A stretch of DNA of 64,000 nt from a virus (taxonomy: Duplodnaviria > Heunggongvirae > Uroviricota > Caudoviricetes), in IMG/VR virus record IMGVR_UViG_3300034102_002845, one strand, 5' to 3'. The translations under genes were made by a program, and so were the position numbers. Below, piece by piece: positions 4,999 to 44,337 of this stretch. The notes below the pieces were generated by a model. That model was not told where the DNA came from and made no database searches. It saw nothing but the letters and a program-made list of their open reading frames with translations. The first letter of the stretch is position 1. Each line of letters begins with the position of its first letter.

Positions 4999-5014
4999 TT
5001 ACCGTTAGAAGAAC

Positions 5015-5186: not shown

Positions 5187-5230
5187 GGGCGGTTTCCCGG
5201 CTTGTTTCTACGGAGAAGAAACGGTATACT
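5187..5230 (+). promoter_or_regulatory. hairpin plus promoter cassette
   Basis: GGGCGGtttCCCGGC; -35 ttgttt 5202-5207; 17-bp spacer; -10 tatact 5225-5230; ATG 5237. Confidence 0.55.
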
Positions 5231-5236
5231 TAGTTT

Positions 5237-5557
5237 ATGGAAAACACCCCGCTGAAAGCTTTCAGAAACTACCTTGCCGGAGCAAACCCAATGACACCCC
5301 TTAGAGACAGAATTAACGCACTGACCAAGCAAAACCTCCAACAACTAATCGAAGACTACGAGCAGTTTGAGAGAGACGGGGCGATTGGAGACTGCTACCT
5401 TCGTTCAACTGCGAAAGAATTTGCAGAGTCTCTCGGGATACAGGTATCCGGCGTGTTGTGGATGAATAGGATCGCCTTCGAGGCATATCGTGAGCTTTTC
5501 TATCGAGTACTGCAGGACTTACCGTACGAGTGCAGCGGAAGTGGGTATACGGTCTAG
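5237..5557 (+). CDS. hypothetical protein
   Basis: ORF begins 7 nt after the cassette -10 box (5225-5230). The N-terminus MENTP is echoed at 35980 and 46357. Confidence 0.35.
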   Translation: MENTPLKAFRNYLAGANPMTPLRDRINALTKQNLQQLIEDYEQFERDGAIGDCYLRSTAKEFAESLGIQVSGVLWMNRIAFEAYRELFYRVLQDLPYECSGSGYTV

Positions 5558-5640
5558 TTTCACCCCCCGTACGCGGCGGGAAACCGTCCTTTACCCTCGC
5601 ACCCAAACAAGCTATAGTAAGCTCACACCGTAAAACAACA

Positions 5641-6582
5641 ATGCACGTGACCAAAACTAAAGAGTATCAGAAAACAGAGCCGATCGAGGTTTACTTGAAT
5701 CGTGACGGTCAAAACCTGTACAAGATTTCAAAGACCTCCTTTACGTTTAGTGCCGGTGAAAGGCAGGTCCGGTTGCATGACACTCCCACGAGTTCGACGG
5801 ACATTATCGTAGACGCAGACATACACAGCGGAGAAAGTTTCGCCGAACTTCTTCTGACTCTGTCGGCCATCAAAGACCTTCCTGTGCTGCGAAGTCTACA
5901 ATTGAACATCCCGTACTTACCTTATAGCCGCCAAGACCGCCAGTGTGCTGAAGGGGAAGCGTTTTCGCTAAGAACTTTTGTAAAAGCTCTCGCACCCTAC
6001 CTTGACGGGGTAGGCGATAGGGTGTACACATGGGACGTGCACAGCCACGTTGCAAATGAGCTCTTTCGAACCGAAATCGGCTGCGAGTTCAACAACCTAC
6101 AACCCCAACTGTTTCTCCAGAAGTTCAAAGACCGGGGGGAAGAGTTTAGTGCTAAGACAATTGTGATTGCTCCGGACAAAGGTGCAGTCGAAAGAGCAAC
6201 CCTCGTTCAACAAGCACTGGGACTCCACTCTGTAGTGTACGCTACGAAAGTTCGCAACCCCGAAGACGGGCAAATCCTAAGGACGGAAGTTCCAGAAGAC
6301 GTCAGTTACAAGGGCAAAAACCTTCTGATTGTGGACGACATCTGCGACGGTGGTCGCACCTTTATCGAACTCGCCAAGGTTCTGCGTCAGTTCGATCCGT
6401 CTCGAATTGACCTCTATGTAACTCACGGAATTTTCTCCAAGGGTTTTAAAGTGTTTGGGGGCTTAATCGACAACTTTCACGTTGCTAACTTGCTCCCTTA
6501 TAAAAACTTTTACCAAGAGTTACCCTCGAGCTTGACCTACCTTCGCACCGAAAACTACCCCACCCCCCGCAACCAACCATGA
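5641..6582 (+). CDS. ribose-phosphate pyrophosphokinase (Prs)-like enzyme; candidate ADPR pyrophosphokinase (Adps-type)
   Basis: NIPYLPYSRQDR (Prs PYxxYxRQDR motif) and KNLLIVDDICDGGRTF (type I PRTase PRPP-binding loop). A TATAGT box lies at 5613-5618. The stop overlaps the start of the NAMPT-like gene. Confidence 0.65.
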   Translation: MHVTKTKEYQKTEPIEVYLNRDGQNLYKISKTSFTFSAGERQVRLHDTPTSSTDIIVDADIHSGESFAELLLTLSAIKDLPVLRSLQLNIPYLPYSRQDRQCAEGEAFSLRTFVKALAPYLDGVGDRVYTWDVHSHVANELFRTEIGCEFNNLQPQLFLQKFKDRGEEFSAKTIVIAPDKGAVERATLVQQALGLHSVVYATKVRNPEDGQILRTEVPEDVSYKGKNLLIVDDICDGGRTFIELAKVLRQFDPSRIDLYVTHGIFSKGFKVFGGLIDNFHVANLLPYKNFYQELPSSLTYLRTENYPTPRNQP

Positions 6583-8093
6583 AAATTTTTGCGCCCCACG
6601 CAACCGACTTTTACAAGACAGGACACCCTTCGCAAAACCCAGACGGCACCGAGGTAATCTACGCCAATATGACGGCAAGATCCGACAGGTTGGCGAACAT
6701 GCCCGCTGACTTCGATCACAAGATCGTCGTGGCGAACGTCCAAGGGACAATGAAGTGGATGCTTAGGGACCTTTGGAATGAGACCTTCTTCCAGCAACCC
6801 AAGGCCAAAGTGTTAGACAAGTACGAACGGCGAATGGACTCCTCGCTCGGAGAAGGTGTTGTCGGCACGGACCACATTGCTGAGCTTCACGACCTGGGCT
6901 ACATGCCGCTACACGTAAAGGCTCTGCCTGAGGGTAGCCGGGTTAACATTGGAGTGCCGTTTCTGACGGCGCAAAACACTCACAATGAGTTTAAGTGGCT
7001 GGCCCCGTGGCTAACCAACTATGTCGAAACAGCCAAGTCGTCGGAACTTTGGAAGGCCATCAATGTGGCAACCATCGCTTACGAGTTTCGCCGTCTTCTC
7101 GACCACTACGCTGAAGTCACAGGGAGTGACCCGCAGTTTGTTGACTTTCAGGGGCACGACTTCTCCGCTCGCGGAGTCGGAGGCATTCACGATGCCGCTG
7201 CGCACCAAATCGGCCACCTTTTTTCCTTCAAGGGCACGGACACAATCCTTTCCATTGACTACTTGGAAGATTACTACGAATGCGGTTCCGAGTTTATTGG
7301 GGGGAGTGTTCCCGCCACAGAACACAGTGTAACTTGCCTCGGAGGCCGGGAAAACGAAGTCGAGACAATTCGCCGGATTATCTCGAAAGTTTACCCCTCG
7401 GGGGTTATTAGTGTAGTCAGTGACACGTGGAATTACTGGGACACTCTCACAGTTACTGCTCCCAAACTGAAAGAAGATATTCTGAGCCGTAAGCCAAACG
7501 GGCTAGGGCTGGCCAAGGTCGTCTTCCGTCCCGACAGTGGTGACCCTGAGAAAATCATCTGCGGTGACGCTGACGCTGATCCAGGTAGCCGAGAGTACAA
7601 AGGCTCGCTTGAGCTTTTATGGGAGGTCTTCGGAGGAACGGTAAACGAGAAGGGTTTCAAGGTACTGAACCCTCGAGTTGGCTTAATTTACGGCGACTCG
7701 ATCACTCTTCCACGTGCCAGGGCCATCCTAGAGCACATGAGGCAGCTTGGGTGGGCGTCCGAAAACATTGTGTTTGGTATCGGTTCTTACACCTATCAAT
7801 ACCATACACGGGACACTTTCGGTATCGCATACAAAACGACCTGGGGGCAAATTAACGGTGTCGCCGTTGAAACTATGAAGGACCCTATTACAGACAGCGG
7901 CACGAAAAAGTCGGCGTTGGGTCTACTGCGAGTTGAAAGGGATGGGGAGAACTTTGTCCTTCATCAACAGCAGACTCGTGAGCAAGAGCAGCAAGGTGAG
8001 CTTCGCACCGTGTTCTTAAATAGCGTGGTCTACGGGGAGGACGTAAACTCACTGCCTAACATTCGTACTCGACTTCTCTACCCTGCGGCCTAG
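6579..8093 (+). CDS. nicotinamide phosphoribosyltransferase (NAMPT/NadV)-like enzyme; candidate Namat
   Basis: About 500 aa with FQGHDFSARGV and GTDTILSIDYLEDYY-type NAPRTase-family blocks. Translationally coupled to the upstream Prs-like gene (ATGA overlap). Confidence 0.65.
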   Translation: MKIFAPHATDFYKTGHPSQNPDGTEVIYANMTARSDRLANMPADFDHKIVVANVQGTMKWMLRDLWNETFFQQPKAKVLDKYERRMDSSLGEGVVGTDHIAELHDLGYMPLHVKALPEGSRVNIGVPFLTAQNTHNEFKWLAPWLTNYVETAKSSELWKAINVATIAYEFRRLLDHYAEVTGSDPQFVDFQGHDFSARGVGGIHDAAAHQIGHLFSFKGTDTILSIDYLEDYYECGSEFIGGSVPATEHSVTCLGGRENEVETIRRIISKVYPSGVISVVSDTWNYWDTLTVTAPKLKEDILSRKPNGLGLAKVVFRPDSGDPEKIICGDADADPGSREYKGSLELLWEVFGGTVNEKGFKVLNPRVGLIYGDSITLPRARAILEHMRQLGWASENIVFGIGSYTYQYHTRDTFGIAYKTTWGQINGVAVETMKDPITDSGTKKSALGLLRVERDGENFVLHQQQTREQEQQGELRTVFLNSVVYGEDVNSLPNIRTRLLYPAA

Positions 8094-11363: not shown

Positions 11364-12179
11364 CCTTTGCTCTGGTAACCTACTATAAGAAAGTGCCCAA
11401 CCCAACTAGCGAAACCTTCGACAAGATCCTGAGTTTCGACCCCTTAGATGCCGCCGAACGTTTAACCGGATCTTCCTACAAAGAGAGCCCAGGTACAGTG
11501 TCCCTTGGAATGGCAATGGCTCAGGAACACAATCCTCCAAAGTCCGAGCTCTGTCTGATGCCAACGACCGATTGAAGTGCAGAAGGCGATCCAAGGGCGG
11601 TTACCTTAAACCCACACAAAATTGTTCAACATAGCTAGAGAAACCTTCAACGAGACTCCAAGGTACACAGCCACCGAATGAAAACTCCTAACCCACCACA
11701 GAAGCCACGACTCGAACCCACTAAGAGACGACTTTCTCTTTGACGACGGAAACTTTTACCGCAGAGTAATTCCGAGAGGAGAGCGGGTAAGGACACCACC
11801 CGAATGGCTCAAGTCCACAGGTTATGTTATCCACGGGTATTACCCTGTAGCCAACCCAAACATAGTCAAAGATCTAGAAACAGCTTACCAACAGTGGGCA
11901 TCTCCCACTAATCCAGAGAGACAAACTTGCAAGCCTATGGCAACCCCTACGCTAGACCCGCAGCAGATTCAGCAACTCATTGAGGCTATTCAACAGCTTT
12001 CCGCAAAGCTCGATGCCCTTTCCGCCGTTGACCACACCGTGGACAAGATAACGGATAGTATTCTCACGTACAGTCTGCTTTTCCCTAAGATTTGACACTA
12101 TGGGCGCCGAGGACGGTTTCCACCCTTGTCTTTGCTCGGCAAAGACGGTATGATTACTTTAGTAGAGATACTCGAACCA

Positions 12180-12500
12180 ATGACAAACCTCCCTGAGAAC
12201 ATCACAATTAAAGAGACCTCTTATCTCGACCATGAGACCACTTTCTGTGGGAAGTTCAGCGACATTAAGAGAGCCCTTGACAAGCTCGAGAAAGAGGGTT
12301 GGGAGGGTATGGAACGCGAATCAAGAGGGTACGACGGTGCTGTTGAGTGCAATCTCTACAAGCACCGCCTAGAAACAGACGAAGAGCGGGACAAAAGGGT
12401 GAAGGCTCTTGGTCAAAAGGCGAAAAAAGAAGCTATTGCAAAGGAAGTGCGGCGGCAAAGGTATGAAACGTTAAGGAAGGAGTTTGGGGCGGACGACTAG
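12180..12500 (+). CDS. hypothetical protein (Lys/Glu-rich C-terminus)
   Basis: First ATG downstream of the -10 box (tatgat 12149-12154). The upstream part of the track ORF would begin inside the promoter. Confidence 0.3.
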   Translation: MTNLPENITIKETSYLDHETTFCGKFSDIKRALDKLEKEGWEGMERESRGYDGAVECNLYKHRLETDEERDKRVKALGQKAKKEAIAKEVRRQRYETLRKEFGADD

Positions 12501-13036
12501 TCGCCCCGCACCCTTGACCCCGCCTTAGTCACCCAGCCTATTAATCTCGTATGGACCCGAATCGCAACTCACTCGAAACCCTTCTCAAATTGCCAACTCA
12601 CAGGTTGCTAACATACTTTCGAGCAAACTTTTCCAGCTTCGCCTACGACGAAGACGAAGAGGGTTCCGCAACTAAGCGGTTTGAGCACCGAAAAGCCGCA
12701 ATCAAGGAAGAGCTGGCCCGTCGAGAGCATGTCCCCCGACCCAAGACCTGTAACTAGCCCGTTGCCCCACACCACCACCTTCACACTAGTGTAAAATGGC
12801 AAGAATCACCGAAGAGCAAGGTTTAAGATCAGCTCAAGATGTTTGGGTTATTGACTTGTATGAGTCTGAGCGAGAATGGGAAGCGAGTCCTGGTCCGAAT
12901 TCTTCACGACTTTTGTGGAGGCCAACGAGCGGTATACTACAGTGAACGCCGTAAACCCTGCGGATCATGTTCCCGACTACTACATCGTTGCATCGAAGCC
13001 TCGCAAGGCCATTCCGCGTCTAACTTGACTACCTTG

Positions 13037-13084
13037 AGGGGCGGTTTCCACCCCCTTGTTTCTGCGACGCAGAAACGGTATAAT
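13037..13084 (+). promoter_or_regulatory. hairpin plus promoter cassette
   Basis: -35 ttgttt 13056-13061; spacer ctgcgacgcagaaacgg (palindrome); -10 tataat 13079-13084; ATG 13112. Confidence 0.55.
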
Positions 13085-13111
13085 TGGTTCGTGACCAAAG
13101 CACCCCAACCC

Positions 13112-14145: not shown

Positions 14146-15255
14146 ATGGAAATAAACCTGCGCCACTTTCTAATCGACTGGTTAAACTACCGTGTCGAGA
14201 CCGCTTTTGAAGCACTCGCTGAACACGACATTCGTGTTGCTCGCGACGAACGTTACCCTGCTCTCTACAACTTGAAGTACGGCAGTGTAATGGCGGACAA
14301 GGCACTGCCGATCGTTCGTGCCTGCCGTGGTGCCGTAGTCGAACTCGTTGACGATGGTACGGGCTCCCCGTACTTTCGGCTGGTTGCGTACGCCTTCGAT
14401 CGCTTTTTCAACGTTGGCGAGGGGTATGCCGCTGAGATTGATTGGTCCACTGCCCGTGTAGCTGAGAAGTATGACGGGTCTCTGATCAAGTTGTTTAGCT
14501 ATAAGGGGGATTGGGTAGTTTCAACCTCCGGTTCAGTCGCTGGTTCCTCGGAAGTAGGAACCACGGGTCGCTCCTTCTCCGAGTTGTTTTGGCACGTGTT
14601 TGACGAAGTTGGCTACGAGCGGGTGGACCTGGACCCTAATTTCGTGTATATCTATGAATTGTGCCACAAAGACAACAAAATTGTTGTAGACTACGAGACT
14701 CCCCTTTTACCTCTCTTAACTGTCCGTAGCGTAATAGATGACCTGAACGAAAAGGATCTCAAGTACTTTGAGAACCGATTCAATCTCGCTCAGACCTACG
14801 ACCTGCGCTCACATGAAGCTGTAACCCAGTTTGTAAACGACTCTTCTCGTGGTACCGCTGAAGGCGTAATTATTGTCGACGGAAACGGAAACCGCCAGAA
14901 AGACAAGTCCAACGTCTACTGTCAGTTGCACAGGGTTAAAGGAAACGGAGAACCGGATTTCTCCGAGCTTTTCCTGAACGACGACTTGGAAGAGTTTCTG
15001 CTTCACTTTCCCGAGTATCGTAGGGGTTTTGACGTTCACCTGCGTTCCATCGAAGTGATGGAGAGTGCGGTGAGCGAGAACATGAGGGCTCACAACCATC
15101 TTAACCAGAAGGATTTCGCTCAAGCCGTACTTGCCGAGTCAAAAGAACTTTCTGGAGCATGCTTTGCGATTCGATCCGGCAAAGTCGGATCCTTTGCAGA
15201 GTGGCTCGAAGGTTTAACCCCGAAAAAGCTCGACGTTTTGCTCGGAATTTCCTGA
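14146..15255 (+). CDS. RNA ligase, T4 Rnl1 (RnlA)-like
   Basis: Motif I EKYDGSL (compare T4 Rnl1 KEDGSL), then AEGVIIVDGNGNRQKDKSNVY (motif IV EGhh plus motif V lysines) about 150 aa downstream. Length 369 aa, similar to Rnl1. Confidence 0.6.
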   Translation: MEINLRHFLIDWLNYRVETAFEALAEHDIRVARDERYPALYNLKYGSVMADKALPIVRACRGAVVELVDDGTGSPYFRLVAYAFDRFFNVGEGYAAEIDWSTARVAEKYDGSLIKLFSYKGDWVVSTSGSVAGSSEVGTTGRSFSELFWHVFDEVGYERVDLDPNFVYIYELCHKDNKIVVDYETPLLPLLTVRSVIDDLNEKDLKYFENRFNLAQTYDLRSHEAVTQFVNDSSRGTAEGVIIVDGNGNRQKDKSNVYCQLHRVKGNGEPDFSELFLNDDLEEFLLHFPEYRRGFDVHLRSIEVMESAVSENMRAHNHLNQKDFAQAVLAESKELSGACFAIRSGKVGSFAEWLEGLTPKKLDVLLGIS

Positions 15256-18831: not shown

Positions 18832-19137
18832 TTGAGCAGGGTGATGGAAGACAACATTTCGAGACTACAGCAAATGACGAGAGATACGAGAGAAGAAACG
18901 GCTCGAATTCGTGAGGAAACAGCAATAATTGAAAAGGAGACCGCCCAGTACAGGGAACAAACAGCAAGGCTTAAGAAAGAAAACTCAAGACTGCGGGAGG
19001 AGATTCACCTTAAGCATGCTCAACGCCGTGAGCACAGGATAAAAATGGAAAGGGAAACGGAAGACAGGTTGCAAAGCATTGAGCTACGACTTCAGCAGTT
19101 GGAGGTTGCCCTGAAAAGCCAGTCGCAGGATGTGTGA
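18832..19137 (+). CDS. coiled-coil protein
   Basis: Heptad-like RE(E/Q)TA repeats (TREETARIREETAIIEKETAQYREQTARLKKE). Confidence 0.35.
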   Translation: MSRVMEDNISRLQQMTRDTREETARIREETAIIEKETAQYREQTARLKKENSRLREEIHLKHAQRREHRIKMERETEDRLQSIELRLQQLEVALKSQSQDV

Positions 19138-19172
19138 TCTTTCGAGTTGTTAGGGTCGTGCAAAGTTTTAGG

Positions 19173-19236
19173 GGGGCAAACCGCCCTAAACGTTCTGTTT
19201 TCCGTCTTGTTTCTGCTCTGCAGAAACGGTATAGTT
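19173..19236 (+). promoter_or_regulatory. hairpin plus promoter cassette (upstream of tyrS)
   Basis: -35 ttgttt 19208-19213; spacer identical to the 13759-13775 copy; -10 tatagt 19231-19236; ATG 19255. Confidence 0.55.
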
Positions 19237-19254
19237 AGTTTAATCACCAAGCCT

Positions 19255-20418
19255 ATGTTCACATCTAAACCTCCTTCAAGCCTAACCCGTGGAATAATTG
19301 ACACTTTTCCCGCAATAGCAGACGATACTTTTTTCACGACCCAGAAGAGGATAAAACTTGGGTTCGACCCGACCTCAAACTTTTTGCATCTGGGGCATTC
19401 TGTACTTCTTCGTAAGCTACGGACTTTTCAGGACCAGGGCCACATTCCCGTTGTCATTATTGGTGACTTCACTGCAAGAATAGGGGACCCCACGGGAAAG
19501 TCCTCGGTAAGAAAGCAACTTTCAAAAGAAGAAGTAGATTCCAACATTGACAGCTTCATTACAGCAATATCACGCTTCGTAAACCTGGAAAAATGTGAGC
19601 TGGTTCTCAACTCTAGCCATTTAGAGTGCCTACACTTGTCAGACATTGTTAAACTTCAGTCCATAACAACTGTACAGCAAATGATTGCAAAGCAAGATTT
19701 TGCACACCGCATTGAGTTACAAACTCCGATTAGGCTACACGAGTTTATGTACCCTTTGCTCCAAGGGTACGACAGTTTTCATGTAGAGTCGGACGTAGAG
19801 CTCGGTGGCACTGACCAGAAATTCAATGTTGGCTTGGGTAGAGAGGTTCAAAAACATTTCGACTCACCGGTCCAGCAAGTTGGTATGCTAATGCCAATTC
19901 TACCGGGCACCGACGGAGTGCAAAAAATGAGCAAAAGTCTGAACAATGCCATTGGACTCGACGAACACCCACTTCAAATGTTCTCTAAACTTGAGAAGGT
20001 TCCGGACCAATTGGTTAACGATTACATTACACTCCTCACCGACTGCAACCTGGATCAGTTTCCGGAAAATCCTCGAGAAAGACAGAAGCGAATGGCCGTA
20101 GAAGTCGTCTCCACCTTCCATGGAAGGGAGAAAGCTCTGAAGGCACTGAAAGACTCCGAGGCCCTTGTTTTCTCACAGACAATTGAAGTTAACGTGCCGG
20201 AAGTTTCGACTAAGGGAGTGGATTTTCCCTGCCGTCTAGCTACCATCCTAAAAACACTCAATTTGGTAGAAAGCACAAGCGAGGCTCGACGTAAAATAAA
20301 GGCAGGCTCTGTAAAAGTTGACGGGGTTGGGGTTACTGACGAAAACCTGACCATTGAGTCTGTCTCGAAGGGTGTTATTGTTCAACTGTCGAAAAAAGAC
20401 TTTTTTAAGTTGGTGTGA
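19255..20418 (+). CDS. tyrS: tyrosyl-tRNA synthetase (class I aaRS with C-terminal S4-like domain)
   Basis: GFDPTSNFLHLGHSVLL (compare E. coli TyrRS GFDPTADSLHLGHLVPL), ELGGTDQKFN, KMSKS motif KMSKSLNNAI, and C-terminal S4-like SEARRKIKAGSVKVDGVGV. ATG 19 nt after the cassette -10 box. Confidence 0.75.
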   Translation: MFTSKPPSSLTRGIIDTFPAIADDTFFTTQKRIKLGFDPTSNFLHLGHSVLLRKLRTFQDQGHIPVVIIGDFTARIGDPTGKSSVRKQLSKEEVDSNIDSFITAISRFVNLEKCELVLNSSHLECLHLSDIVKLQSITTVQQMIAKQDFAHRIELQTPIRLHEFMYPLLQGYDSFHVESDVELGGTDQKFNVGLGREVQKHFDSPVQQVGMLMPILPGTDGVQKMSKSLNNAIGLDEHPLQMFSKLEKVPDQLVNDYITLLTDCNLDQFPENPRERQKRMAVEVVSTFHGREKALKALKDSEALVFSQTIEVNVPEVSTKGVDFPCRLATILKTLNLVESTSEARRKIKAGSVKVDGVGVTDENLTIESVSKGVIVQLSKKDFFKLV

Positions 20419-20461
20419 TTTCCTTTGAGTTGGTCTTGACCGTGTGTGAACTCTCCAGTAT

Positions 20462-20506
20462 GGGCGGTTTACCCCCCTTTTCTCTGCGGGGCAGAAACGG
20501 TATACT
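20462..20506 (+). promoter_or_regulatory. hairpin plus promoter cassette
   Basis: GGGCGGtttaCCCCCC; spacer ctgcggggcagaaacgg; -10 tatact 20501-20506; ATG 20509. Confidence 0.5.
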
Positions 20507-20508
20507 AA

Positions 20509-20808
20509 ATGAGTTGTGTTCCTCCAAAAACAATGGATTCCACTAACGCGGTGACTCTTAGAGTTATAAGACCCCTTGATAACGCATCCGATTTGCTTAC
20601 AACGCTTGAAAACCGTGTCTTGTACGAGAACGAGAAGCGAGGGGAAGCAGAGGTGAAAGCCGAACGTTTTGCTCGCGCACTCGTGACCGTTTTGGATGGA
20701 GTGCAAGACCACGAACTGCAGAGCATGACGGGTCTGAGTGAAGCCGACTGCAACGAGATAGCTCGCACTCGCTCTGAGGCTGCCACTCTTGTTCCTGTAA
20801 GACTCTGA
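20509..20808 (+). CDS. hypothetical protein
   Basis: ATG 3 nt after the cassette -10 box (20501-20506). Confidence 0.35.
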   Translation: MSCVPPKTMDSTNAVTLRVIRPLDNASDLLTTLENRVLYENEKRGEAEVKAERFARALVTVLDGVQDHELQSMTGLSEADCNEIARTRSEAATLVPVRL

Positions 20809-20811
20809 AAG

Positions 20812-20857
20812 GGGGCGGTTTACCCCCCTTACCTTTCCGACAGGAAAGCGGTATAGT
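20812..20857 (+). promoter_or_regulatory. hairpin plus promoter cassette
   Basis: -35 ttacct 20829-20834; spacer ttccgacaggaaagcgg; -10 tatagt 20852-20857; leader shared with the 23973 and 24286 copies. Confidence 0.55.
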
Positions 20858-21023
20858 TACTTCAGTCCACTTGAGCAACCATGTTCCCCCTGAACGACCT
20901 TTCCGCACTTCACAGCATCTTCTTCACGTTGCTTGGCCTGATTTCATTGGTTCTTGTCCTCAATCGGCCCCAAACCCGAGCCTGACTCCCTCCACAAATT
21001 CTCCCGTCTCATTACCAAACAAA

Positions 21024-21455
21024 ATGACTCTTACGGCACAAGCGATTCGGACCGCCCAGGAAATCGCGTTAGATACCAACCCTGGCCTTCCACGGCTACC
21101 CCACATTCCAAACAACCTGCTGACGGACATTCTGTCCCCGGAACAGCAGGAGGAAAATCTTTTATTCCTCTCCCTTTGGGTGACTGAGCGAGACTCGCAC
21201 AATCTTGATATGAGAACTTGGCATGCGCATGCCAAGACAGTCTACGTAACCCTTCAAAACTGTGGCGAGGTCCATTGCATTTCGGGATTCGCACAAGTTA
21301 TGTGTGGTGAAAAGGGCTTCTTCATGTACCCTGGATTTGTTGGTCGCTTGCTACTTGGGGACGAAGCAGGCACGCACTTCACTGACAGCAACGCCGACGC
21401 ACTTTGCTTCCTTCGCCGAGTTATTTCGCGTAATTCCCCTGGTACTAGTGCTTGA
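21024..21455 (+). CDS. paralog-family protein (LPHIP...CGxVHCIxGFAQVMCG family), copy 1
   Basis: Shares LPHIP, LSPEQQEENL, LW(I/V)xERD, VHCI(S/G)GFAQVMCGE and LLG(D/E)EA..HF.D blocks with 21831..22241 and 38957..39493. Confidence 0.45.
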   Translation: MTLTAQAIRTAQEIALDTNPGLPRLPHIPNNLLTDILSPEQQEENLLFLSLWVTERDSHNLDMRTWHAHAKTVYVTLQNCGEVHCISGFAQVMCGEKGFFMYPGFVGRLLLGDEAGTHFTDSNADALCFLRRVISRNSPGTSA

Positions 21456-21462
21456 AACAAGA

Positions 21463-21735
21463 ATGGAAACCGAAATCCTAAACCTGCGGTCTTTGTGCCG
21501 CAAGCAACAAATTGCACTTGCAGTGTTGCGGTCAATGTGCAATTCACAGACGGGCCACCTAGTACTTGAGAATTGGGAGCCAACACTCGACGATCTCGAC
21601 CGCCGTGTGGATGCAGCACTGGCTGAGGTCCCTGCTCCAGGAGACAACTTTCCCGAGAAAACCGGCTTCCTTCGCAAGGCAAAAAATGCGTTTTTTCAAC
21701 CTTCTGTGCGGCATCAGTCTCCAGGACGACGGTGA
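21463..21735 (+). CDS. hypothetical protein
   Basis: First ATG after the stop of the preceding gene; no recognisable motif. Confidence 0.3.
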   Translation: METEILNLRSLCRKQQIALAVLRSMCNSQTGHLVLENWEPTLDDLDRRVDAALAEVPAPGDNFPEKTGFLRKAKNAFFQPSVRHQSPGRR

Positions 21736-21830
21736 TTGCTACAGGGCAACAACCCACCCACGTTAAACTACGGGTGTAAACTACGACCCGTGAGACCCTG
21801 CTCACTTAAAAACAACGAACCCTAAACAAA

Positions 21831-22241
21831 ATGACTACCTCCACCGAAACACGTCCGAGCACTCAGGCAAGTTCACTAACCATCCCTAGTCTCCCGCACA
21901 TTCCAGAAAGTTGGGACATTGTGCTTTCCCCTGAACAACAAGGAGAGAACTTACGGCACGTTGCACTCTGGATTGTGGAGCGTGACTTGGATAACTTCAA
22001 TATGTTTGCGTACCACCTGAATGGGGACTACACCAATTACTGGGAGGGAATAAACACCAGTAACTGCGGTACGGTTCACTGCATCGGAGGTTTCTCACAA
22101 GTTATGTGTGGAGAACTGGGCTTCACTGTCCACCCTCGGATTGCAGGAAACAGGCTGTTAGGAGAAGAGGCCGAAAGCCACTTCTCGGACACCACTGAAG
22201 ACGGTCTTGCTTTCCTTCGGGAAGTGATCGCTCGCGGTTAG
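21831..22241 (+). CDS. paralog-family protein, copy 2
   Basis: LPHIPESWDIVLSPEQQGENLRHVALWIVERD...CGTVHCIGGFSQVMCGE...LLGEEAESHFSDTTEDGLAFLREVIARG. Confidence 0.5.
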   Translation: MTTSTETRPSTQASSLTIPSLPHIPESWDIVLSPEQQGENLRHVALWIVERDLDNFNMFAYHLNGDYTNYWEGINTSNCGTVHCIGGFSQVMCGELGFTVHPRIAGNRLLGEEAESHFSDTTEDGLAFLREVIARG

Positions 22242-22614
22242 TATGCAACGAAACTACCCCTTCAGTCGAAAACACCGTCACCCGAAGGGGTCTCGGTGGG
22301 TCGAGGTGAAAGATGGGCTGAGGCTAACCCCAAATGAGAAGCTCATTCGTAAGCTGGACAAAGAGCGGGGTTCCCCCGAAGAGGTTACGCCAGTTGAAAT
22401 ACAAGTCTCATTGGGGTTTGTCCTCGTGGTGCTACTTTCGGTGCTTTATCTATTCGGTTTATTTTACCCGACCGCCCCATGAAATTCGACACAATTTACC
22501 TCCCCATCGAAGAAGCGATTCCTGCTGCCGCAGACTGGTGAGAACTATCAACCTGAAATCGACGGGCACTCCCTTATCAAGGTTTTATCGGTCGTTTCTC
22601 CGTAGCATAAGGGC

Positions 22615-22659
22615 AGGGCGGTTTCCCCCCCTGCCTTTCCGGAAGGAAAGCGGTAAACT
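22615..22659 (+). promoter_or_regulatory. hairpin plus promoter cassette
   Basis: -35 ctgcct 22631-22636; spacer ttccggaaggaaagcgg; -10 taaact 22654-22659; ATG 22681. Confidence 0.5.
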
Positions 22660-22680
22660 AAACTAGTTCAAAGCACTCAG

Positions 22681-23010
22681 ATGAATCTCGCTCAGCTCGA
22701 AAAGAGCATCCCCAACAGTTACAATCTAACAATTTCAAAGTCCCTAAAGAGGGACCAGGGCGACTGGTGGGACCGCTGGACCTGGGCCTTAAACAGCAGC
22801 GACAAACTCTACGAATCCCCCTGGTTCGGCTTCTCAACGTTACACGAAGTTCTCGAGGATCTTTCCACTCACCTTGAGCTTTACTCCGAGCTTTTTCAGA
22901 GCGACACGGCACACAAGGAAGAAACGGAAGAGGTGCTCACAGATGGCGAGCTCGATGAGCTTGTTAGGTGTTTGTCCTATCAGGACCCCGAACCCCGAAT
23001 ATCTAACTAG
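22681..23010 (+). CDS. hypothetical acidic protein
   Basis: Follows the cassette at 22615-22659. Confidence 0.35.
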   Translation: MNLAQLEKSIPNSYNLTISKSLKRDQGDWWDRWTWALNSSDKLYESPWFGFSTLHEVLEDLSTHLELYSELFQSDTAHKEETEEVLTDGELDELVRCLSYQDPEPRISN

Positions 23011-23041
23011 CTTACCTTAAACCGCACCCCTAAACCTGAAA

Positions 23042-23935
23042 ATGACAGTCACACTGAAAGCCACTCATCTTGTAAACGAGGGAAGCTACCTTATTCAAAG
23101 AAGCCACACATCCGCCAGCCTTGAGGTGGATGGAATCCCTGTAACGGCAAACACTTTCGTTGTGTCGGACCCTACGACCATCCTTAGTGTTCGCGTGTTT
23201 CAACCCGCAGTTACGCATTATGAGAACGAGACTGGTAGCACTTTGTCAGTCGAGTCGTACATGGAACAGAAAAGCGATCTCGCTTCAAAAGGCACCCCGG
23301 AAGAGGGGTACTCAAGCTGCTACATCTTTGAGAATCTCGACGACGAATTCGCCTACAAGCGTTTTCTCAAAACGTGGGAGCCGGTGTTCGGCGAGTCTCG
23401 CACGGAAAAGGATCCCGTCAAACTTGAGGTGGTGGAGGTTCGTACCAACTCCGGCGACCCAGACATTCAGTCTATGTGGAACTCTCCGCAATGCGCAACC
23501 AAGGCACACCTATACACCTTAGACCGCAATGCGATTTCTCTCCGAGACTTCAAAGCTTGTTGCGAAGCTCATGGCTTAGACTACAATATCCCGTCCCACA
23601 GCGGTATTCGATTTGCAAAGATCGACGGGAAGTACGCCGGGTTTGACGACATGGACTTTTCCAAGTCTCCCCCTTTCATTGGTACTCTCGACCAGTGCAA
23701 AGCAGAAAAGTTGTCTCTTTACAAGAGGGTGACGAATACTATCAAACTATACATTGCGAAGTATAGGACGAAACCCGCACTGAAAAACGCTGCGGAGGTT
23801 CTATCAGATCTAGACGCCATTCGGGTCATGGTACAGAAAGCCACACCCATGAAAGCCTCTCGCGACAATCACACTGCCGCACTCGCAGCAATCAATAAGC
23901 TGCAGACCTCAGTTCGTAGGGAGATATTGGACTAA
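23042..23935 (+). CDS. hypothetical protein
   Basis: 297-aa ORF with coding-like composition. Confidence 0.4.
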   Translation: MTVTLKATHLVNEGSYLIQRSHTSASLEVDGIPVTANTFVVSDPTTILSVRVFQPAVTHYENETGSTLSVESYMEQKSDLASKGTPEEGYSSCYIFENLDDEFAYKRFLKTWEPVFGESRTEKDPVKLEVVEVRTNSGDPDIQSMWNSPQCATKAHLYTLDRNAISLRDFKACCEAHGLDYNIPSHSGIRFAKIDGKYAGFDDMDFSKSPPFIGTLDQCKAEKLSLYKRVTNTIKLYIAKYRTKPALKNAAEVLSDLDAIRVMVQKATPMKASRDNHTAALAAINKLQTSVRREILD

Positions 23936-23978
23936 GGCGGTTCACCCCCTTGCCTTCCCGGCAGGAAAGCGATATAGT
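23936..23978 (+). promoter_or_regulatory. hairpin plus promoter cassette
   Basis: -35 ttgcct 23950-23955; -10 tatagt 23973-23978; ATG 24002. Confidence 0.55.
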
Positions 23979-24001
23979 TACTTCAGTCCACGCACGCAAC
24001 C

Positions 24002-24220
24002 ATGACCTTCGACCCTCAAGCAGAAGCACGCTCAATGCTGCTTTGTTGGGAAAAGTACTACGTTATTCCACCTAACACTAAAACACTTCGAGATTGCGCT
24101 GAGCATGGCGCTACACACTGCGCCTACGGCTGGCCAAAGTTTCCGGACCCCAGATGGAACAGTGAGCAGATCGAAGCGTATCTTGCTGCCTACTGCTCTG
24201 CCCCGCATAGTCCGTGCTGA
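24002..24220 (+). CDS. hypothetical small protein
   Basis: Follows the cassette at 23936-23978. Shares a near-identical 5' leader with the genes at 20881 and 24317. Confidence 0.35.
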   Translation: MTFDPQAEARSMLLCWEKYYVIPPNTKTLRDCAEHGATHCAYGWPKFPDPRWNSEQIEAYLAAYCSAPHSPC

Positions 24221-24245
24221 GGCACACCCACCGATCCCTTTCTTT

Positions 24246-24291
24246 GGGGCGGTTTACCCCCCTTTCTTTCTCGAAGAGAAAGCGGTATAGT
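24246..24291 (+). promoter_or_regulatory. hairpin plus promoter cassette
   Basis: Spacer tctcgaagagaaagcgg (palindrome); -10 tatagt 24286-24291; ATG 24317. Confidence 0.5.
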
Positions 24292-24316
24292 TACTTCAGG
24301 CAACTCCGAAGCAACC

Positions 24317-24592
24317 ATGGCATTCCACCCCCAAGCAGAAGCCGATCTCGAAGCACTTTGGCTGGGGCTTCCCGAAGACGCCCGCAGGAAGGTTGAGAAG
24401 ATGCCCGCAGGTTTGCGAGACTCTTTTTTGCAGTTGACGCACTCCTATGCACTTTCCGCCTACGAACTTGGATCTCGGCGATCCAGGCAAGACTGCCACC
24501 GGGCTATTTTACTTGTGGCTGAGAAGGTGCATCCCGACAGCAACTTGGAAAGTTTTCTGGAGCCTGACTACGGAATGGTGCCCCGTGCGTAG
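24317..24592 (+). CDS. hypothetical small protein
   Basis: Follows the cassette at 24246-24291. Confidence 0.35.
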   Translation: MAFHPQAEADLEALWLGLPEDARRKVEKMPAGLRDSFLQLTHSYALSAYELGSRRSRQDCHRAILLVAEKVHPDSNLESFLEPDYGMVPRA

Positions 24593-25144
24593 ATCTACCA
24601 ACGAACCAATGAATCTTAGCAAAGTTTTTTGAATTTCCGCTACCCCCCTGAACCGAAGCAAAGCCGTGATCAACCCCAAGCCACCGATAACAGATGCGCA
24701 AAGAAACATGTTACGGCTGATTGAACGCAGCACGGACTCAGGGGACGGATGGCTCTCAGTGTCTAGCCTCCTTTGGAAGCTGGTGGTGGATCAAAGCCAC
24801 CCAGAACTAACTGAGTTGGATCAAGAAAACACGCGGGTCCGGTTTACACCGGAAGGACTCATTGTGATGAAGTATTTGCCATGACTCTTGAGTCACCAAT
24901 TCTTAATCTTGCAGAGTTTCTCGGCAAAGAAGTTATCATTCTGCTACGCAACGGTCCTACACAAGCCGGAGTTATTATACCTTCTTCGATTGAGTTGCTG
25001 CCATGGGGCTGGATGACCGGGTTGTACCCCTACTCCATAGACTCAGCTCCAGCTCTTACTTGGACCGGCACAGGTCGGTGGGATATTATTGATGAACACG
25101 AGTACGACATTATGAAAATTGATCTAAAAACTGAATGAGAAACA

Positions 25145-25702
25145 ATGACTGAGGTTGAAGAGGCAAGGAAAGTGTACACAGGAATTGGGGGCCGAGAAAC
25201 ACCTGAGCCGATTCTGGCACTTATGGGCCGAATTTCGGCAAGGATGGACCGTCTAGGATTCACACTGCGCTCGGGTGGTGCTGATGGCGCCGATGCGGCT
25301 TTTGAAGCAAACTCCAGGAGAAAGGAGATATTCTTGCCGTGGAACGGATTCAACGGACGGTACCACGACGGTAAATCCCACTTTGATTATCTTTTGTGCC
25401 CAGGACGAGAGCTAGCTCAAGAAAGCGTGGAGCGGTTCCATCCCGCACCCTCTCGGCTCTACGATAAGGGGCGAAAGTTAATGGCTAGGAACGCGATGCA
25501 AGTTCTAGGGAGAGACTGCAAGAGCCCAACAGACGTGGTAATTTGCTGGACAAAAAATGGTAAGGATGTCGGTGGAACCTCACAGGCGATTCGCATCGCT
25601 AGGTTTCACAACATTCCCGTTCTCAACCTGGGAAACCTAGCCACAGAAACATACTTTACTGCTTTCACAGACGATCCTGACTCGCCTTTTGTTCTTCCTT
25701 AG
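25145..25702 (+). CDS. SLOG-superfamily (DprA/Smf/LOG-like Rossmann) protein
   Basis: TGIGGRETPEPIL...LGFTLRSGGADGADAAFEAN resembles the DprA/SLOG GxG...SGGAxGxDxxA core. Confidence 0.35.
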   Translation: MTEVEEARKVYTGIGGRETPEPILALMGRISARMDRLGFTLRSGGADGADAAFEANSRRKEIFLPWNGFNGRYHDGKSHFDYLLCPGRELAQESVERFHPAPSRLYDKGRKLMARNAMQVLGRDCKSPTDVVICWTKNGKDVGGTSQAIRIARFHNIPVLNLGNLATETYFTAFTDDPDSPFVLP

Positions 25703-25768
25703 AGCGGTTTCCCGGTTACCTTGGGGCGGTTTCCCCCCGTTTGTTTTTCAGACGGAAAACGCTATAGC
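25703..25768 (+). promoter_or_regulatory. double-hairpin plus promoter cassette
   Basis: Two GCGGTTTCCC units; -35 ttgttt 25741-25746; -10 tatagc 25763-25768; ATG 25814. Confidence 0.5.
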
Positions 25769-25813
25769 AGGTTTATACGGGGCAAACCCCGCAATCCACC
25801 TTTTACCAGAAAA

Positions 25814-26125
25814 ATGGCATTCACATCCGAAGGAACAATCGAAATCCACCTTCCCGAGTTTTGGGACTGGGTTCACGAAAACTATCTCCCTGTCCCCAGG
25901 GGGTCTGAGGTACGTTATGGGGTTCCCCGCATCAACCGTGGGAACTCCGTCATGGAAATTGACTTTGCGGCTGCTACCGAGTGCGATCCGGCGGATTGGG
26001 CGGTGAAGCCGAAGGCGGTGACCCAGGGGGATTCTGCTGGCGCTGCACAAACTGAAAGTCCTACCGAAGGGGGAGCTCAACATACCATTGAGCTGCGTGT
26101 ATCGCAAAACTTTTATGACGTGTGA
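25814..26125 (+). CDS. hypothetical protein
   Basis: First ATG after the tandem-hairpin cassette at 25703-25768. Confidence 0.35.
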   Translation: MAFTSEGTIEIHLPEFWDWVHENYLPVPRGSEVRYGVPRINRGNSVMEIDFAAATECDPADWAVKPKAVTQGDSAGAAQTESPTEGGAQHTIELRVSQNFYDV

Positions 26126-26271
26126 CCCTTCTTGCAAAGGCTGACGGTATAAGTAAAGCCGACGTCATAAGAGGTGCTGTGTACTCTGTAATCAAGGGAG
26201 TTCTGCAGAACTAAGCCGCTTAGCACCCGAAGACAAGCACCAAAAGTCAACCAACCAAACCACAACGCAAA

Positions 26272-27393
26272 ATGGCAAACATTGAACGCAAACTCGCCTC
26301 CGTCCGAAAAGTAACGGAGATCCGACCAATCCCAGACGCCGACGCAATTGAGTGCGCCATCGTGGGAGGTGGCTGGCCCGTTGTCGTGAAGAAGGGGGAG
26401 TTCCAAGCTGGTGATCTTGCAATCTATTTCGAGATTGACTCGTGGATTCCCCACGAACTTGCCCCGTTCTTGTCCAAAGGGAAGGAACCAAGGGAGTACA
26501 ATGGAGTGAAGGGGGAGAGGTTGAAAACCGTCCGGCTCCGTGGTCAAGTCTCCCAGGGTCTCCTACTTCGCTTCTCGGACATCTCTCCAAGCTTCTACGT
26601 TGTTTCGCTAGCTGAACCTTATGGGGGGAGGGGATCTCTCCGAGTTGATGAGTGTGTGTGGCAAGAAGGCGAAGACTTCACTCTAGAGTTTGGTATTCAA
26701 AAGTGGGAGGCCACGGTCCCCGCTTGCCTTGCGGGACAAGTTCGTGGAAACTTCCCGAGTTTTTTGGTTAAGAGTGACCAAGAGAGATGTCAAAATATCG
26801 TGAGAAAAATCTTCGAGGAGCACAAGGAGGAAACCTACGAAGTTTCTCTGAAGCTGGACGGGTCTTCCTGCACCATTTATGCCCGAGACGGGGACAGTGG
26901 CGTGTGTAGTCGCAACCTAGACCTTAAGGAAACAGAAGGAAACAGCTTCTGGAAGGCTGCTCGAGAACAAGGTGTAATTGACGCCTTGCTGACCTATAAT
27001 AAGGAAACCGGTCGCAACATTGCTCTTCAGATGGAGCTGTGCGGTGAAGGGATTCAAGAAAACCAAGAAGGAATCAAAGGACAACGGCTTTTTCTTTTTG
27101 ACGTCTTCGACATCGACACTCAGACCTACATGAAGCCGGGGCAGCGACTTGTTTTCCTTGACGAGGTTTTGACTGAGCTTGGGGCCAAGTTGGAACACAC
27201 TCCCATTATTGACCTTCGAACTTACGTTGCCGGACGATTCGCCAACCTTGACGAGCTACTTGCTTATGCAGATGGTCCGTCTATGAACCCAAAAGTCAAG
27301 CGTGAAGGTGTGGTGTTCAAATCGTACGACTCCGCGTTCTCCTTCAAGGCCATTAGCAACGAGTGGTTGCTGTGGAAAGGGAAGAAAGGGTGA
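26272..27393 (+). CDS. RNA ligase, DraRnl/Rnl5-type (N-terminal OB-like domain plus nucleotidyltransferase)
   Basis: N-terminus VRKVTEIRPIPDADAIECAIVGGGWPVVVKKGEFQAGDLAIYFEIDSWIP. Motif I EVSLKLDGSSCTIY, motif III LQMELCGEGI, motif IV KREGVVFKS, and C-terminal lysines. Confidence 0.6.
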   Translation: MANIERKLASVRKVTEIRPIPDADAIECAIVGGGWPVVVKKGEFQAGDLAIYFEIDSWIPHELAPFLSKGKEPREYNGVKGERLKTVRLRGQVSQGLLLRFSDISPSFYVVSLAEPYGGRGSLRVDECVWQEGEDFTLEFGIQKWEATVPACLAGQVRGNFPSFLVKSDQERCQNIVRKIFEEHKEETYEVSLKLDGSSCTIYARDGDSGVCSRNLDLKETEGNSFWKAAREQGVIDALLTYNKETGRNIALQMELCGEGIQENQEGIKGQRLFLFDVFDIDTQTYMKPGQRLVFLDEVLTELGAKLEHTPIIDLRTYVAGRFANLDELLAYADGPSMNPKVKREGVVFKSYDSAFSFKAISNEWLLWKGKKG

Positions 27394-27410
27394 GGGTGAA
27401 TTGCCCCTAA

Positions 27411-30072: not shown

Positions 30073-30810
30073 ATGAATAACGTTACTTCCAATTTTGCCT
30101 TCATCGGCGACCTACACTCTCAGAGAAAGCCCTTGCTCAAAGCACTCGATTATTGCAGAGGAGCAAATTGCACACCAATTTTCCTCGGAGACCTTTTTGA
30201 CTCTCGTATGGAAACAAGCGACAGCGCAGGTGTGTATAAAGCTGTCAGCCAAGCCGTGGAAGAAGGGGCGATTGTGCTTCGAAGCAACCACCAAAACAAG
30301 CTGGAGCGTTACGCTCGCGGGAACAACGTGGTTCTTAAAGAGGGCTTTGAGCGTACTGTGCAAGACTTCTCAGACGCAGGTATCCCTATTGAGGAAGTCT
30401 CTGCCTGGCTGGAAACTTTTCCCTACGGGGTTGCCTTGCGAGATTCCCGAGGGACCGAGTACCGTTGTGCTCACGCGATGTTTCCGAAGTGGGTTCTTGT
30501 TCCGCCGTCTTACACAGGAGTATACCGTGTGAATGAGGTTACGAGAAAAGCCAAGGACTACATGCTATTTGGTCCTCGCCGTCCCGGTGCGGTGTACCCT
30601 CAAGATGAGACTCGTGTCTTTTGGTGGGAAGAGGAATGCGATCGGACCTGGGTTCGTGTCGCAGGACACTACCACCACGTTCACACGAGCGAGAGGAGCC
30701 TGGTTCTCGACGGTCAGATGGGTGGTAGCACTCAGAAAAGTTTTGACCCGGCGCACGCTCGCCTCTGTGTGTGGAACCTGGAAGAACAAACCCTTGTTCA
30801 GTTTGCTTAG
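30073..30810 (+). CDS. calcineurin-like metallophosphoesterase (PrpE/ApaH-like)
   Basis: FIGDLHSQ, IFLGDLFDSR, RSNHQNK are the GDxH / GDxxDRG / GNHE-type metallophosphatase motifs. ATG 6 nt after the -10 box. Confidence 0.65.
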   Translation: MNNVTSNFAFIGDLHSQRKPLLKALDYCRGANCTPIFLGDLFDSRMETSDSAGVYKAVSQAVEEGAIVLRSNHQNKLERYARGNNVVLKEGFERTVQDFSDAGIPIEEVSAWLETFPYGVALRDSRGTEYRCAHAMFPKWVLVPPSYTGVYRVNEVTRKAKDYMLFGPRRPGAVYPQDETRVFWWEEECDRTWVRVAGHYHHVHTSERSLVLDGQMGGSTQKSFDPAHARLCVWNLEEQTLVQFA

Positions 30811-44333: not shown

Positions 44334-44337
44334 CAAG

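Follow-up and report, generated by a model that had tools for sequence, protein, structure and literature searches.

A 64,000-nucleotide stretch of viral DNA (Caudoviricetes; IMG/VR record IMGVR_UViG_3300034102_002845), hereafter the window, carries at 19255-20418 on the + strand a gene for a tyrosyl-tRNA synthetase (TyrRS). We consider it very probable that the product is a catalytically competent type 2 TyrRS of a jumbo cyanophage, encoded by a mobile cassette bounded by promoter-like elements, belonging to an old viral clade, and conferring a conditional benefit in tyrosine charging. The identity of the gene, its intact residues, fold, viral clade, purifying selection, and cassette indel were read or computed from sequences; from these we infer enzymatic activity, promoter and terminator function of the elements, and a physiological role.

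Identity and integrity of the synthetase

The + strand open reading frame (ORF) ending at 20418 has two candidate starts, TTG at 19147 and ATG at 19255. Independent gene calls on JGI, ENA, and Logan contigs start at the ATG, which we favor because a promoter-like element (described below) falls within the longer TTG ORF. The resulting coding sequence of 387 amino acids plus stop was proposed to be a complete phage-encoded TyrRS by an earlier sequence-only reading of this DNA, and profile searches bear this out. The NCBIfam tyrS model TIGR00234 matches with 341.4 bits (cutoff 113.8, E=7.7e-102) over profile positions 35-403 of 406, Pfam tRNA-synt_1b, covering the class I Rossmann-fold catalytic domain, matches with E=2.5e-66, and Pfam S4 scores 28.7 bits (cutoff 22.8). 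Residues 36-52 are GFDPTSNFLHLGHSVLL, the string on which the sequence-only reading had relied, and a KMSKS loop is present. The protein is a TyrRS and not a tryptophanyl-tRNA synthetase, reaching only 46.8 bits against the trpS model TIGR00233 (cutoff 176.75). The closest solved structures, found by HMMER search against PDB chains, are the type 2 bacterial TyrRS of Acinetobacter (6bqy), Helicobacter (6byq), and Thermus (1h3e). By sequence comparison, the predicted product is confirmed as a bacterial type 2 (Thermus/cyanobacterial type) TyrRS, a class Ic synthetase.

We checked the catalytic residues for degeneracy in an alignment of 35 sequences (alignment A1; 24 viral-clade members and 11 cyanobacterial TyrRS) and in HMMER alignments to PDB chains, and found both signature motifs intact. 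The HIGH signature H45-L-G-H48 (19387-19398, + strand) is invariant in the 35 sequences and aligned to the HLGH of PDB TyrRS, and the KMSKS loop K224-S228 (19924-19938, + strand) is likewise invariant and aligned to the KMSKS of 1h3e, 6bqy, and 6byq. T40, D78, K82, R86, Y166, Q170, D173, D187, and Q188 are all present and invariant or nearly so, Y166, Q170, and D173 belonging to the tyrosine pocket and T40 to the HIGH group with H45 and H48. For the B. stearothermophilus enzyme, we take the tyrosine- and tyrosyl-adenylate-binding residues of the Fersht mutagenesis literature to be Thr40, Asp78, Lys82, Arg86, Tyr169, Gln173, Asp176, Asp194, and Gln195. The position of B. stearothermophilus Tyr34 is a lysine here, as it is in the type 2 Thermus, Acinetobacter, and Helicobacter enzymes.

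Thermus thermophilus TyrRS (1H3E, 9SDF) is 34-35% identical to the phage protein, sharing HIGH, KMSKS, and Asp259, which we take to be the reader of anticodon base G34. The equivalent phage residue, Asp251 (20005-20007, + strand) in the helical anticodon-binding domain, is aligned in the context 'vPDpl' / 'vPDql' and is invariant in the 35 sequences. The phage protein is approximately 40 residues shorter than the Thermus enzyme, and its C-terminal domain shows weak sequence similarity to the Thermus one. An AlphaFold2 model built on the 35-sequence alignment has a mean pLDDT of 89.2 and a pTM of 0.82, and its top Foldseek matches are full-length Thermus TyrRS-tRNA-Tyr complexes (TMq 0.85, about 424 aligned columns). 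Given this full-length superposition on a tRNA-bound TyrRS, the C-terminal S4-like domain (residues 327-366, 20233-20352, + strand; model pLDDT 82-92) is modeled in the tRNA-bound arrangement.

In one viral subclade, other than that of the window gene, pairs at 90-95% amino acid identity gave Nei-Gojobori ratios of nonsynonymous to synonymous substitution (dN/dS) of 0.11-0.22. Six contigs encoding the identical TyrRS protein have zero nucleotide differences in the gene and so offer nothing from which to gauge selection. The intact residues, the fold of the model, and the dN/dS values together argue for a functional synthetase gene, apparently under purifying selection, whose product would be enzymatically active.

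An old viral clade with cyanobacterial affinity

A search over 5.8 billion proteins returned the exact protein, then approximately 70 clusters (380-404 aa) at 57-72% identity, and then a drop to a tier at about 50% made up of named cyanobacterial TyrRS (Oscillatoriaceae, Desertifilum, Cyanobium, Microcystis, and others). The five sampled members of the 57-72% group all lie in phage-type contexts on contigs of 118-280 kb, with dense co-directional small ORFs, RNA ligases, and a CCA-adding enzyme, and eight members are found on IMG/VR viral contigs of up to 279 kb. TyrRS-like genes occur on 44 IMG/VR viral contigs in all (L098-L141), those of the viral clade being 58-72% identical to the query. 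In a collection with one genome per GTDB species, the best cellular matches were all Cyanobacteria at 47-49%, other phyla reached at most 44%, and no viral-clade member was found in a cellular genome, in each case among the matches listed.

The sequence-only reading had left to an alignment and tree the choice between recent host capture and an old viral lineage. We built neighbor-joining (NJ) trees from 200 sequences (373 columns, 200 replicates) and, independently with Biopython, from 44 sequences (100 replicates). The viral TyrRS clade was monophyletic in 200/200 and 100/100 replicates and grouped with Cyanobacteria in 200/200 and 100/100, with Obscuribacterales as the next outgroup in 85/100. 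The distinct 57-72% clade, its identity of about 50% to Cyanobacteria, the NJ support, and the purifying selection all point to an old capture of cyanobacterial affinity and an old viral lineage, with no recent host capture. Recent capture from a picocyanobacterial host in particular can be rejected, since identity is only about 50% and phages grouped with picocyanobacteria in 2/100 bootstraps.

The closest cellular relatives (Cyanobium, Microcystis, Oscillatoriaceae, and Prochlorococcus TyrRS, 47-53% identity) share with the phage clade the domain order, the catalytic motifs, and the G34-reading aspartate. They differ in carrying two segments missing from the phage clade, roughly 8-11 residues inserted ahead of the KLGxDPT motif and a 'TPG' loop of 3 residues, and in reading KLGIDPT where the phage clade has KLGFDPT. 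The viral clade is as diverse as the sampled cyanobacterial TyrRS, which dates the capture well before present-day hosts.

Phage setting and likely host

The sizeable ORFs of the window are all co-directional and mostly small. They include genes for a PRPP-synthetase-like protein, a NAMPT/NAPRTase, a T4 Rnl1-type RNA ligase, two more RNA_ligase-family proteins, two metallophosphoesterases, an endolysin, an exonuclease, a thymidylate kinase, and a Tet/JBP dioxygenase with glycosyltransferase neighbors. No capsid or terminase gene was found within the 64-kb window, and the sole sign of a virion gene is a partial match of 765-1985 to a PHROGs minor-head-protein family. A megablast search of the 20 kb around the TyrRS gene against 50,697 phage records gave no match.

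At the protein level, a tblastn search with the 495-aa product of 52530-54017 hit Synechococcus phage S-CBWM1 at 59% identity. Approximately 16 + strand ORFs of the window have S-CBWM1 homologs (30-62% amino acid identity), and the block 51349-58917 is collinear with S-CBWM1 2659-7897. S-CBWM1 (Aokuangvirus, 139 kb, 51.6% GC) is the nearest isolate, with a genome about half the size and a tRNA-rich early region, and infects an estuarine Synechococcus (PMC7472177). It has 36 tRNAs, including tRNA-Tyr, and no TyrRS. The GC content of the window is about 50%. The window corresponds to ENA contig ERZ27272090 k141_795803 (199,389 bp), the identical TyrRS gene lies in the same context on JGI, ENA, and Logan contigs of up to 262,030 bp, the length of JGI Ga0453727_0000003, and contigs with TyrRS-clade genes extend to 262-280 kb. 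Judged from these contigs and homologies, the source is a jumbo (>200 kb) cyanophage, a distant relative of S-CBWM1.

That the closest cellular relatives of the TyrRS are cyanobacterial might be taken to mean that a cellular (cyanobacterial) tyrS ended up here through mis-assembly or mis-binning of a contig. This explanation is effectively refuted: the same gene and phage-type context recur in independent JGI, ENA, and Logan assemblies, identity to any cyanobacterial TyrRS is only about 50%, the neighbors are phage genes with S-CBWM1 homologs, and other clade members lie on IMG/VR viral contigs.

A cassette bounded by a repeated hairpin and promoter-like element

Enrichment of k-mers in intergenic DNA revealed a repeated composite element, consisting of a GC-rich hairpin ending in GGGCGGTTT followed by TTGTTTCTGC-N3-GCAGAAACGGTATA(G/A/C)T, in which a -35-like box (TTGTTT) and a -10-like box (TATAgT) are separated by 17 nt that include a palindrome. 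One copy stands on each side of the TyrRS gene. After the upstream gene (18832-19137) comes a terminator-like hairpin, UUUAGGGgGGcaaaCCgCCCUAAA, at 19167-19190 (fold -14.6 kcal/mol, z -1.3), with its GGGCGGTTT core on the - strand. It is followed by promoter-like copy 1 at 19207-19235 (+ strand; TTGTTT, 17 nt with the palindrome TTTCTGC..GCAGAAA, TATAGT), which reads TGTTTCTGC-N3-GCAGAAACGGTATA(GT) over 19208-19235 and ends 20 nt before the TyrRS ATG. Beyond the TyrRS stop lies a second terminator-like hairpin at 20446-20472 (+ strand; fold -16.3 kcal/mol, z -1.2), ending in GGGCGGUUUAC and then CCCCCCUUUUCUCU, and promoter-like copy 2 at 20479-20506 (+ strand), TTTCTCTGC-GGG-GCAGAAACGGTATACT, an exact motif match with 0 mismatches that would serve the next ORF.

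The GGGCGGTTT core occurs 19 times in the window (0.82 expected), 18 of them on the + strand. A relaxed promoter pattern has 10 matches (0.58 expected), all on the + strand, and a looser core scan finds 16 intergenic copies, again all on the + strand. The sequence-only reading had credited the gene with its own cassette promoter; as a repeated motif with at least 16 copies this is real, and its promoter activity is predicted from the motif. The element as a whole would act as promoter and terminator. In other viral TyrRS subclades, some genes have a promoter-like site directly upstream and some abut the preceding gene.

As an observation on the element itself, its common form over at least 16 repeats is a hairpin ending in GGGCGGTTT and then TTGTTTCTGC-N3-GCAGAAACGGTATAgT, every repeat being on the + strand and most lying between genes. 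The promoter cores lie at 5219, 10961, 13073, 13769, 19224, 20495, 20846, 24280, 25757, 27444, 30055, 43854, 46339, 50746, 59610, and 60062. These copies probably mark many other shuffled single-gene cassettes in the region, which resembles an early-gene region.

To compare the locus among close relatives, we fetched contigs from IMG/VR by means of a neighboring gene and examined them by BLASTN and a junction alignment (A4). Three relatives (L159, L161, and L164, one of them IMGVR_UViG_3300044625_001067 of 277,244 bp) are collinear with the window up to 19233 and from 20477 onward and lack 19234-20476, which holds the TyrRS gene. Their nucleotide identity to the window is 88-94% immediately around the gene and 79.9-96% across all aligned blocks, lowest just downstream. 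In place of the two elements, each relative has one chimeric element, with its left half from copy 1 and its spacer and right half from copy 2, and the crossover maps to a shared CTGC beside the 3-nt spacer. The cassette segment so defined is 1,271 bp (19217-20487). No TyrRS match was found anywhere on the 277-kb contig. The chimeric single element in the relatives shows that the TyrRS gene is an indel, produced where two direct copies of the element recombined.

Similar elements are known from T4-type phages as promoter-early stem-loop (PeSL) cassettes (Arbiol et al., 2010; Comeau et al., 2014; PMC2839356, PMC4122927). Two hallmarks of a PeSL-type system are found here, namely a composite of stem-loop and sigma-70-like promoter repeated on the + strand among small accessory genes, and repeat-bounded indels between close relatives. 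The differences are in the motif, in the phage lineage (S-CBWM1/Aokuangvirus-like), and in the cargo, which is a full synthetase rather than an ORFan. PeSLs are further characterized by demonstrated early-promoter and terminator activity and by excised mini-circles, while the elements described here are defined by their sequence. On these alignments, the TyrRS gene is a PeSL-like accessory cassette and not a core gene.

The gene has a GC content of 45.2%, the second lowest of 75 ORFs (ORF mean 50.4%), and its nearest TyrRS relatives are 71% identical, even though the flanks have relatives at about 90% nucleotide identity. The low GC content and the 71% identity of the nearest relatives fit exchange of the cassette between phage lineages. 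The same two features, together with the exact presence or absence between close relatives, would also be expected of a neutral passenger recently shuffled in through the promoter elements and of no benefit here. We consider this very unlikely, given that all catalytic and tRNA-binding residues are invariant despite up to about 45% divergence among members of the clade, that dN/dS is low within a subclade, and that the identical gene occurs on many independent contigs (it is listed in 42 blocks of the indexed collection).

The neighborhood of the gene varies in other ways as well. Contigs with a nucleotide-identical TyrRS gene (L001-L006) differ in the first kb downstream (20419-21500; 324 mismatches per kb ungapped, reflecting an indel or replacement), further downstream (21500-27400), and about 6-8 kb upstream (around 11.4-13.0 kb). 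One of them (L004) has a reverse-strand 377-aa gene in place of the PHA02142 ligase gene. The TyrRS neighborhood is thus hyperplastic.

Proposed role in infection

By analogy with its family, the enzyme would be a homodimeric class I synthetase that activates tyrosine with ATP through the HIGH and KMSKS motifs and then transfers it to a class II, long-variable-arm tRNA-Tyr(GUA), with Asp251 recognizing the anticodon and the C-terminal S4-like domain holding the variable arm. The substrate would be host tRNA-Tyr, or a phage copy outside the approximately 74 kb examined. The gene would probably be transcribed by host RNA polymerase early in infection, with transcription ending at the cassette's own hairpin, and recombination between elements would lead to its gain or loss in the manner of PeSL cassettes. 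The most economical role would be to sustain tyrosine charging in a long, high-yield infection once the supply from the host runs short or is shut off. The presence/absence polymorphism suggests that any such benefit is conditional.

Several observations weigh against this account or leave parts of it loose. No tRNA-Tyr gene was found in the window, in the 10 kb past its end (about 74 kb in total), or in some 25 related loci, which makes host tRNA-Tyr the default substrate. A strict sigma-70 and terminator scan called nothing on the + strand upstream of the TyrRS gene; the scan missed the element because its -35 box is TTGTTT. The folding z-scores of the single hairpins are weak, at about -1.2. 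The indel can be read as gain or loss alike, and translation supplementation is a generic benefit. With regard to the lineage, Cyanobacteria were monophyletic without the phages in only 145/200 and 73/100 NJ replicates, and the viral branch is longer (0.53 versus 0.32 substitutions per site from the common node). The viral clade may be either the sister of Cyanobacteria or a fast-evolving offshoot within them, two placements that trees built only by NJ, with a long phage branch, do not separate.

A more specific alternative, which takes up an idea of the sequence-only reading, is counter-defense, in which the TyrRS and the RNA ligases together would restore charged tRNA-Tyr against tRNA-Tyr nucleases or TyrRS-inactivating toxins. 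The gene is polymorphic among genomes of about 90% identity, as arms-race genes would be, and the region holds three RNA-ligase genes and two phosphoesterase genes. tRNA-Tyr is a documented target, the PtuAB effector of Retron-Eco7 being countered by the tRNA-Tyr of phage T5 (PMC11555353), and cyanophage resistance in Synechococcus can be caused by tRNA limitation (PMC11726456). Against this, a synthetase by itself is no substitute for a cleaved tRNA, and a phage tRNA-Tyr was found neither in the 64-kb window plus 10 kb downstream nor beside the TyrRS gene in relatives. A PADLOC search of the TyrRS gene and nine neighbors returned no hits, and the RNA ligases are kept in relatives with and without the TyrRS gene. 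We know of no toxin that targets TyrRS. On balance we regard counter-defense as possible, though unlikely.

A broader version of this idea would make the cassette a determinant of host range or counter-defense, gained and lost within one jumbo-cyanophage population as host restriction of the Tyr-tRNA supply fluctuates, whether by tRNA-Tyr nucleases, tRNA down-regulation, or attack on the host TyrRS. The TyrRS would then be one module of a largely phage-autonomous system of tRNA maintenance, whose other modules would be the three RNA ligases, the phosphoesterases, a class II-like tRNA(UAU), and a family of interrupted tRNAs with an insert of about 40 nt (both described below). We view this proposal as speculative and rather doubtful.

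Unusual tRNAs and a dense set of RNA-repair genes

The sequence-only reading had placed the TyrRS in a tRNA-centered gene content. The tRNA block and the RNA ligases that it listed are real, while its 'PTH2-like' gene at 348-755 (+ strand) did not hold up, a Pfam search with 348-752 giving nothing even at E<=0.1. The tRNAs of the window are Arg-UCU, Ser-CGA, a Lys-UUU-like tRNA, and one with anticodon UAU. Assuming the codon usage of a high-GC host, the phage tRNAs likely match codons that are rare there (AGA, AUA, and AAA).

The tRNA(UAU) (40934-41023, + strand) has homologs in L142, L143, L146, L149-L152, and L154-L157, that is, even in distant relatives. It is 90-95 nt long and class II-like in its long variable arm; the UAU anticodon is invariant, and the tRNA probably has A73. 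The anticodon stem has 6 bp with a C.A pair beside the loop, and compensatory changes are seen in the acceptor and anticodon stems. In Rfam it gives only a sub-threshold tRNA-Sec-like match (26 bits). It could represent an atypical tRNA-Ile or a species akin to allo-tRNAs. We considered and rejected the possibility that it is a substrate of the TyrRS that recodes AUA to tyrosine. The seven AUA codons in the TyrRS gene itself fall in columns occupied by Ile/Val/Leu, one of them the near-invariant Ile76, which means that AUA is decoded as isoleucine and not tyrosine.

A second unusual family consists of interrupted tRNA genes, represented in the window at 37138-37249 (+ strand). Members are 112-119 nt long, score 41-50 bits against the Rfam tRNA model, and were missed by ARAGORN. 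In relatives they lie at 12022-12133 (L155), 11785-11902 and 12992-13109 (L156), 11746-11861, 11987-12104, and 12378-12491 (L149), and 12160-12278 and 12624-12742 (L150). Read by eye, the tRNA bodies differ, with anticodons Lys-UUU, GUU, Gly-UCC, and possibly UCA, and all carry the same insert of roughly 40-47 nt at the same site, where it separates nucleotides 28 and 29 on the 5' side of the anticodon stem. A CAGCAAT motif and a hairpin, GTTAYCTTG-N3-5-AAGRTAC, are conserved in the insert, the hairpin with compensatory changes. The insert matched no Rfam family at E<=1, and a group I intron would be longer. One possibility is a mini-intron spliced by proteins, given the three RNA ligases of the phage; another is that the insert is protective or regulatory. 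Of everything in the window, this family may be the most novel.

Unusual tRNAs kept across relatives raise the question of a non-canonical role for the TyrRS, either as an RNA chaperone or splicing cofactor of the CYT-18 kind or in charging tRNA(UAU) or an interrupted tRNA. A long variable arm and A73 are features of bacterial tRNA-Tyr, and tRNA(UAU) has the former and probably the latter; in addition, the relative S-CBWM1 has group I introns. In enzymes of the type of CYT-18, the fungal mitochondrial TyrRS, an N-terminal extension and insertions form the intron-binding surface. Compared with cyanobacterial TyrRS, the phage clade shows deletions only and no such extension or insertions, CYT-18 structures appear only at Foldseek ranks 47-50, far below bacterial TyrRS, and Rfam finds no group I intron in the window. 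As for charging tRNA(UAU), the UAU anticodon lacks G34 and U35 and yet the enzyme retains its G34-reading aspartate, and the AUA codons of the gene are read as isoleucine. A non-canonical role therefore strikes us as extremely improbable, and canonical charging of tRNA-Tyr remains the preferred reading.

The RNA-ligase-family genes lie at 14146-15255 (Rnl1-type), 26272-27393 (PHA02142 OB-fold plus RNA_ligase), and 60098-60730 (RNA_ligase), and the metallophosphoesterase genes at 30073-30810 and 44254-45045. A DUF2828/DUF7788 protein, labeled 'RNA-binding protein' by PHROGs, is encoded at 33746-35287. Three ligases, two phosphoesterases, and the DUF2828/DUF7788 protein make up an unusually dense RNA-repair repertoire.

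Comparison with other phage synthetases

Synthetases of jumbo and huge phages are well established (PMC7162821, PMC7950403, PMC7824862), and tend to be recorded as oddities of large genomes. The sequence-only reading had held complete synthetases to be rare outside giant viruses and a few jumbo phages. Phage synthetases are less rare than it implied: metagenomic huge phages encode up to 15 (Al-Shayeb et al., 2020; PMC7162821), Eneladusvirus has a TyrRS annotated beside tRNAs and tRNA-processing genes (PMC7760394), and TyrRS-like genes are on the 44 IMG/VR contigs mentioned above. In comparison with the huge-phage synthetases, the present case is a single synthetase, on a mobile cassette, in a cyanophage lineage; the main text of Al-Shayeb et al., 2020 does not mention Cyanobacteria (PMC7162821).

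The Eneladusvirus/RaK2-like jumbo phages (Serratia phage BF, Yersinia phage fHe-Yen9-04, Erwinia pEa_SNUABM) likewise encode a TyrRS, but infect enterobacteria, and their enzyme is only 26-28% identical to the one described here, which suggests an independent acquisition from a different bacterial TyrRS lineage. On IMG/VR contigs there are also several other, unrelated groups of TyrRS-like genes at 25-51% identity, some on contigs of 150-437 kb. The distribution of these sequences suggests that large phages acquired TyrRS repeatedly and independently.

In INPHARED (release 31 August 2025), no cyanophage record matches this TyrRS, so its presence here extends the carriage of translation genes to viruses of major primary producers. 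Also new are the finding that uncultured jumbo cyanophages harbor a large and old viral TyrRS clade derived from Cyanobacteria, and the occurrence of the gene as a mobile, promoter-bounded cassette. The clade could be used to recognize this uncultured lineage of jumbo cyanophages, and the cassette would extend PeSL-like modular shuffling beyond T4-type phages and to cargo of known biochemical function. Genomes that have the gene and genomes that lack it differ by a single clean cassette between flanks of about 90% identity, and so form a natural pair in which the contribution of a viral synthetase to fitness can be tested directly.

Other features of the window

The region 52530-58917 (+ strand) is a likely DNA hypermodification module. 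Its genes encode the 495-aa Tet/JBP 2OG-Fe dioxygenase, an R2K ATP-grasp protein, and TAGT/glucosyltransferase-like, nucleotidyltransferase-like, and APH-kinase-like proteins. The parts at 51349-54017 and 56180-58917 are those collinear with S-CBWM1 2659-7897, and the S-CBWM1 homolog of the dioxygenase is annotated as 'SNF2 DNA repair protein'.

At 5530-8093 (+ strand), a ribose-phosphate pyrophosphokinase-like gene overlaps a NAMPT/NAPRTase-family gene by 4 nt. The pair resembles the kind of NAD+ salvage pair known from vibriophage KVP40.

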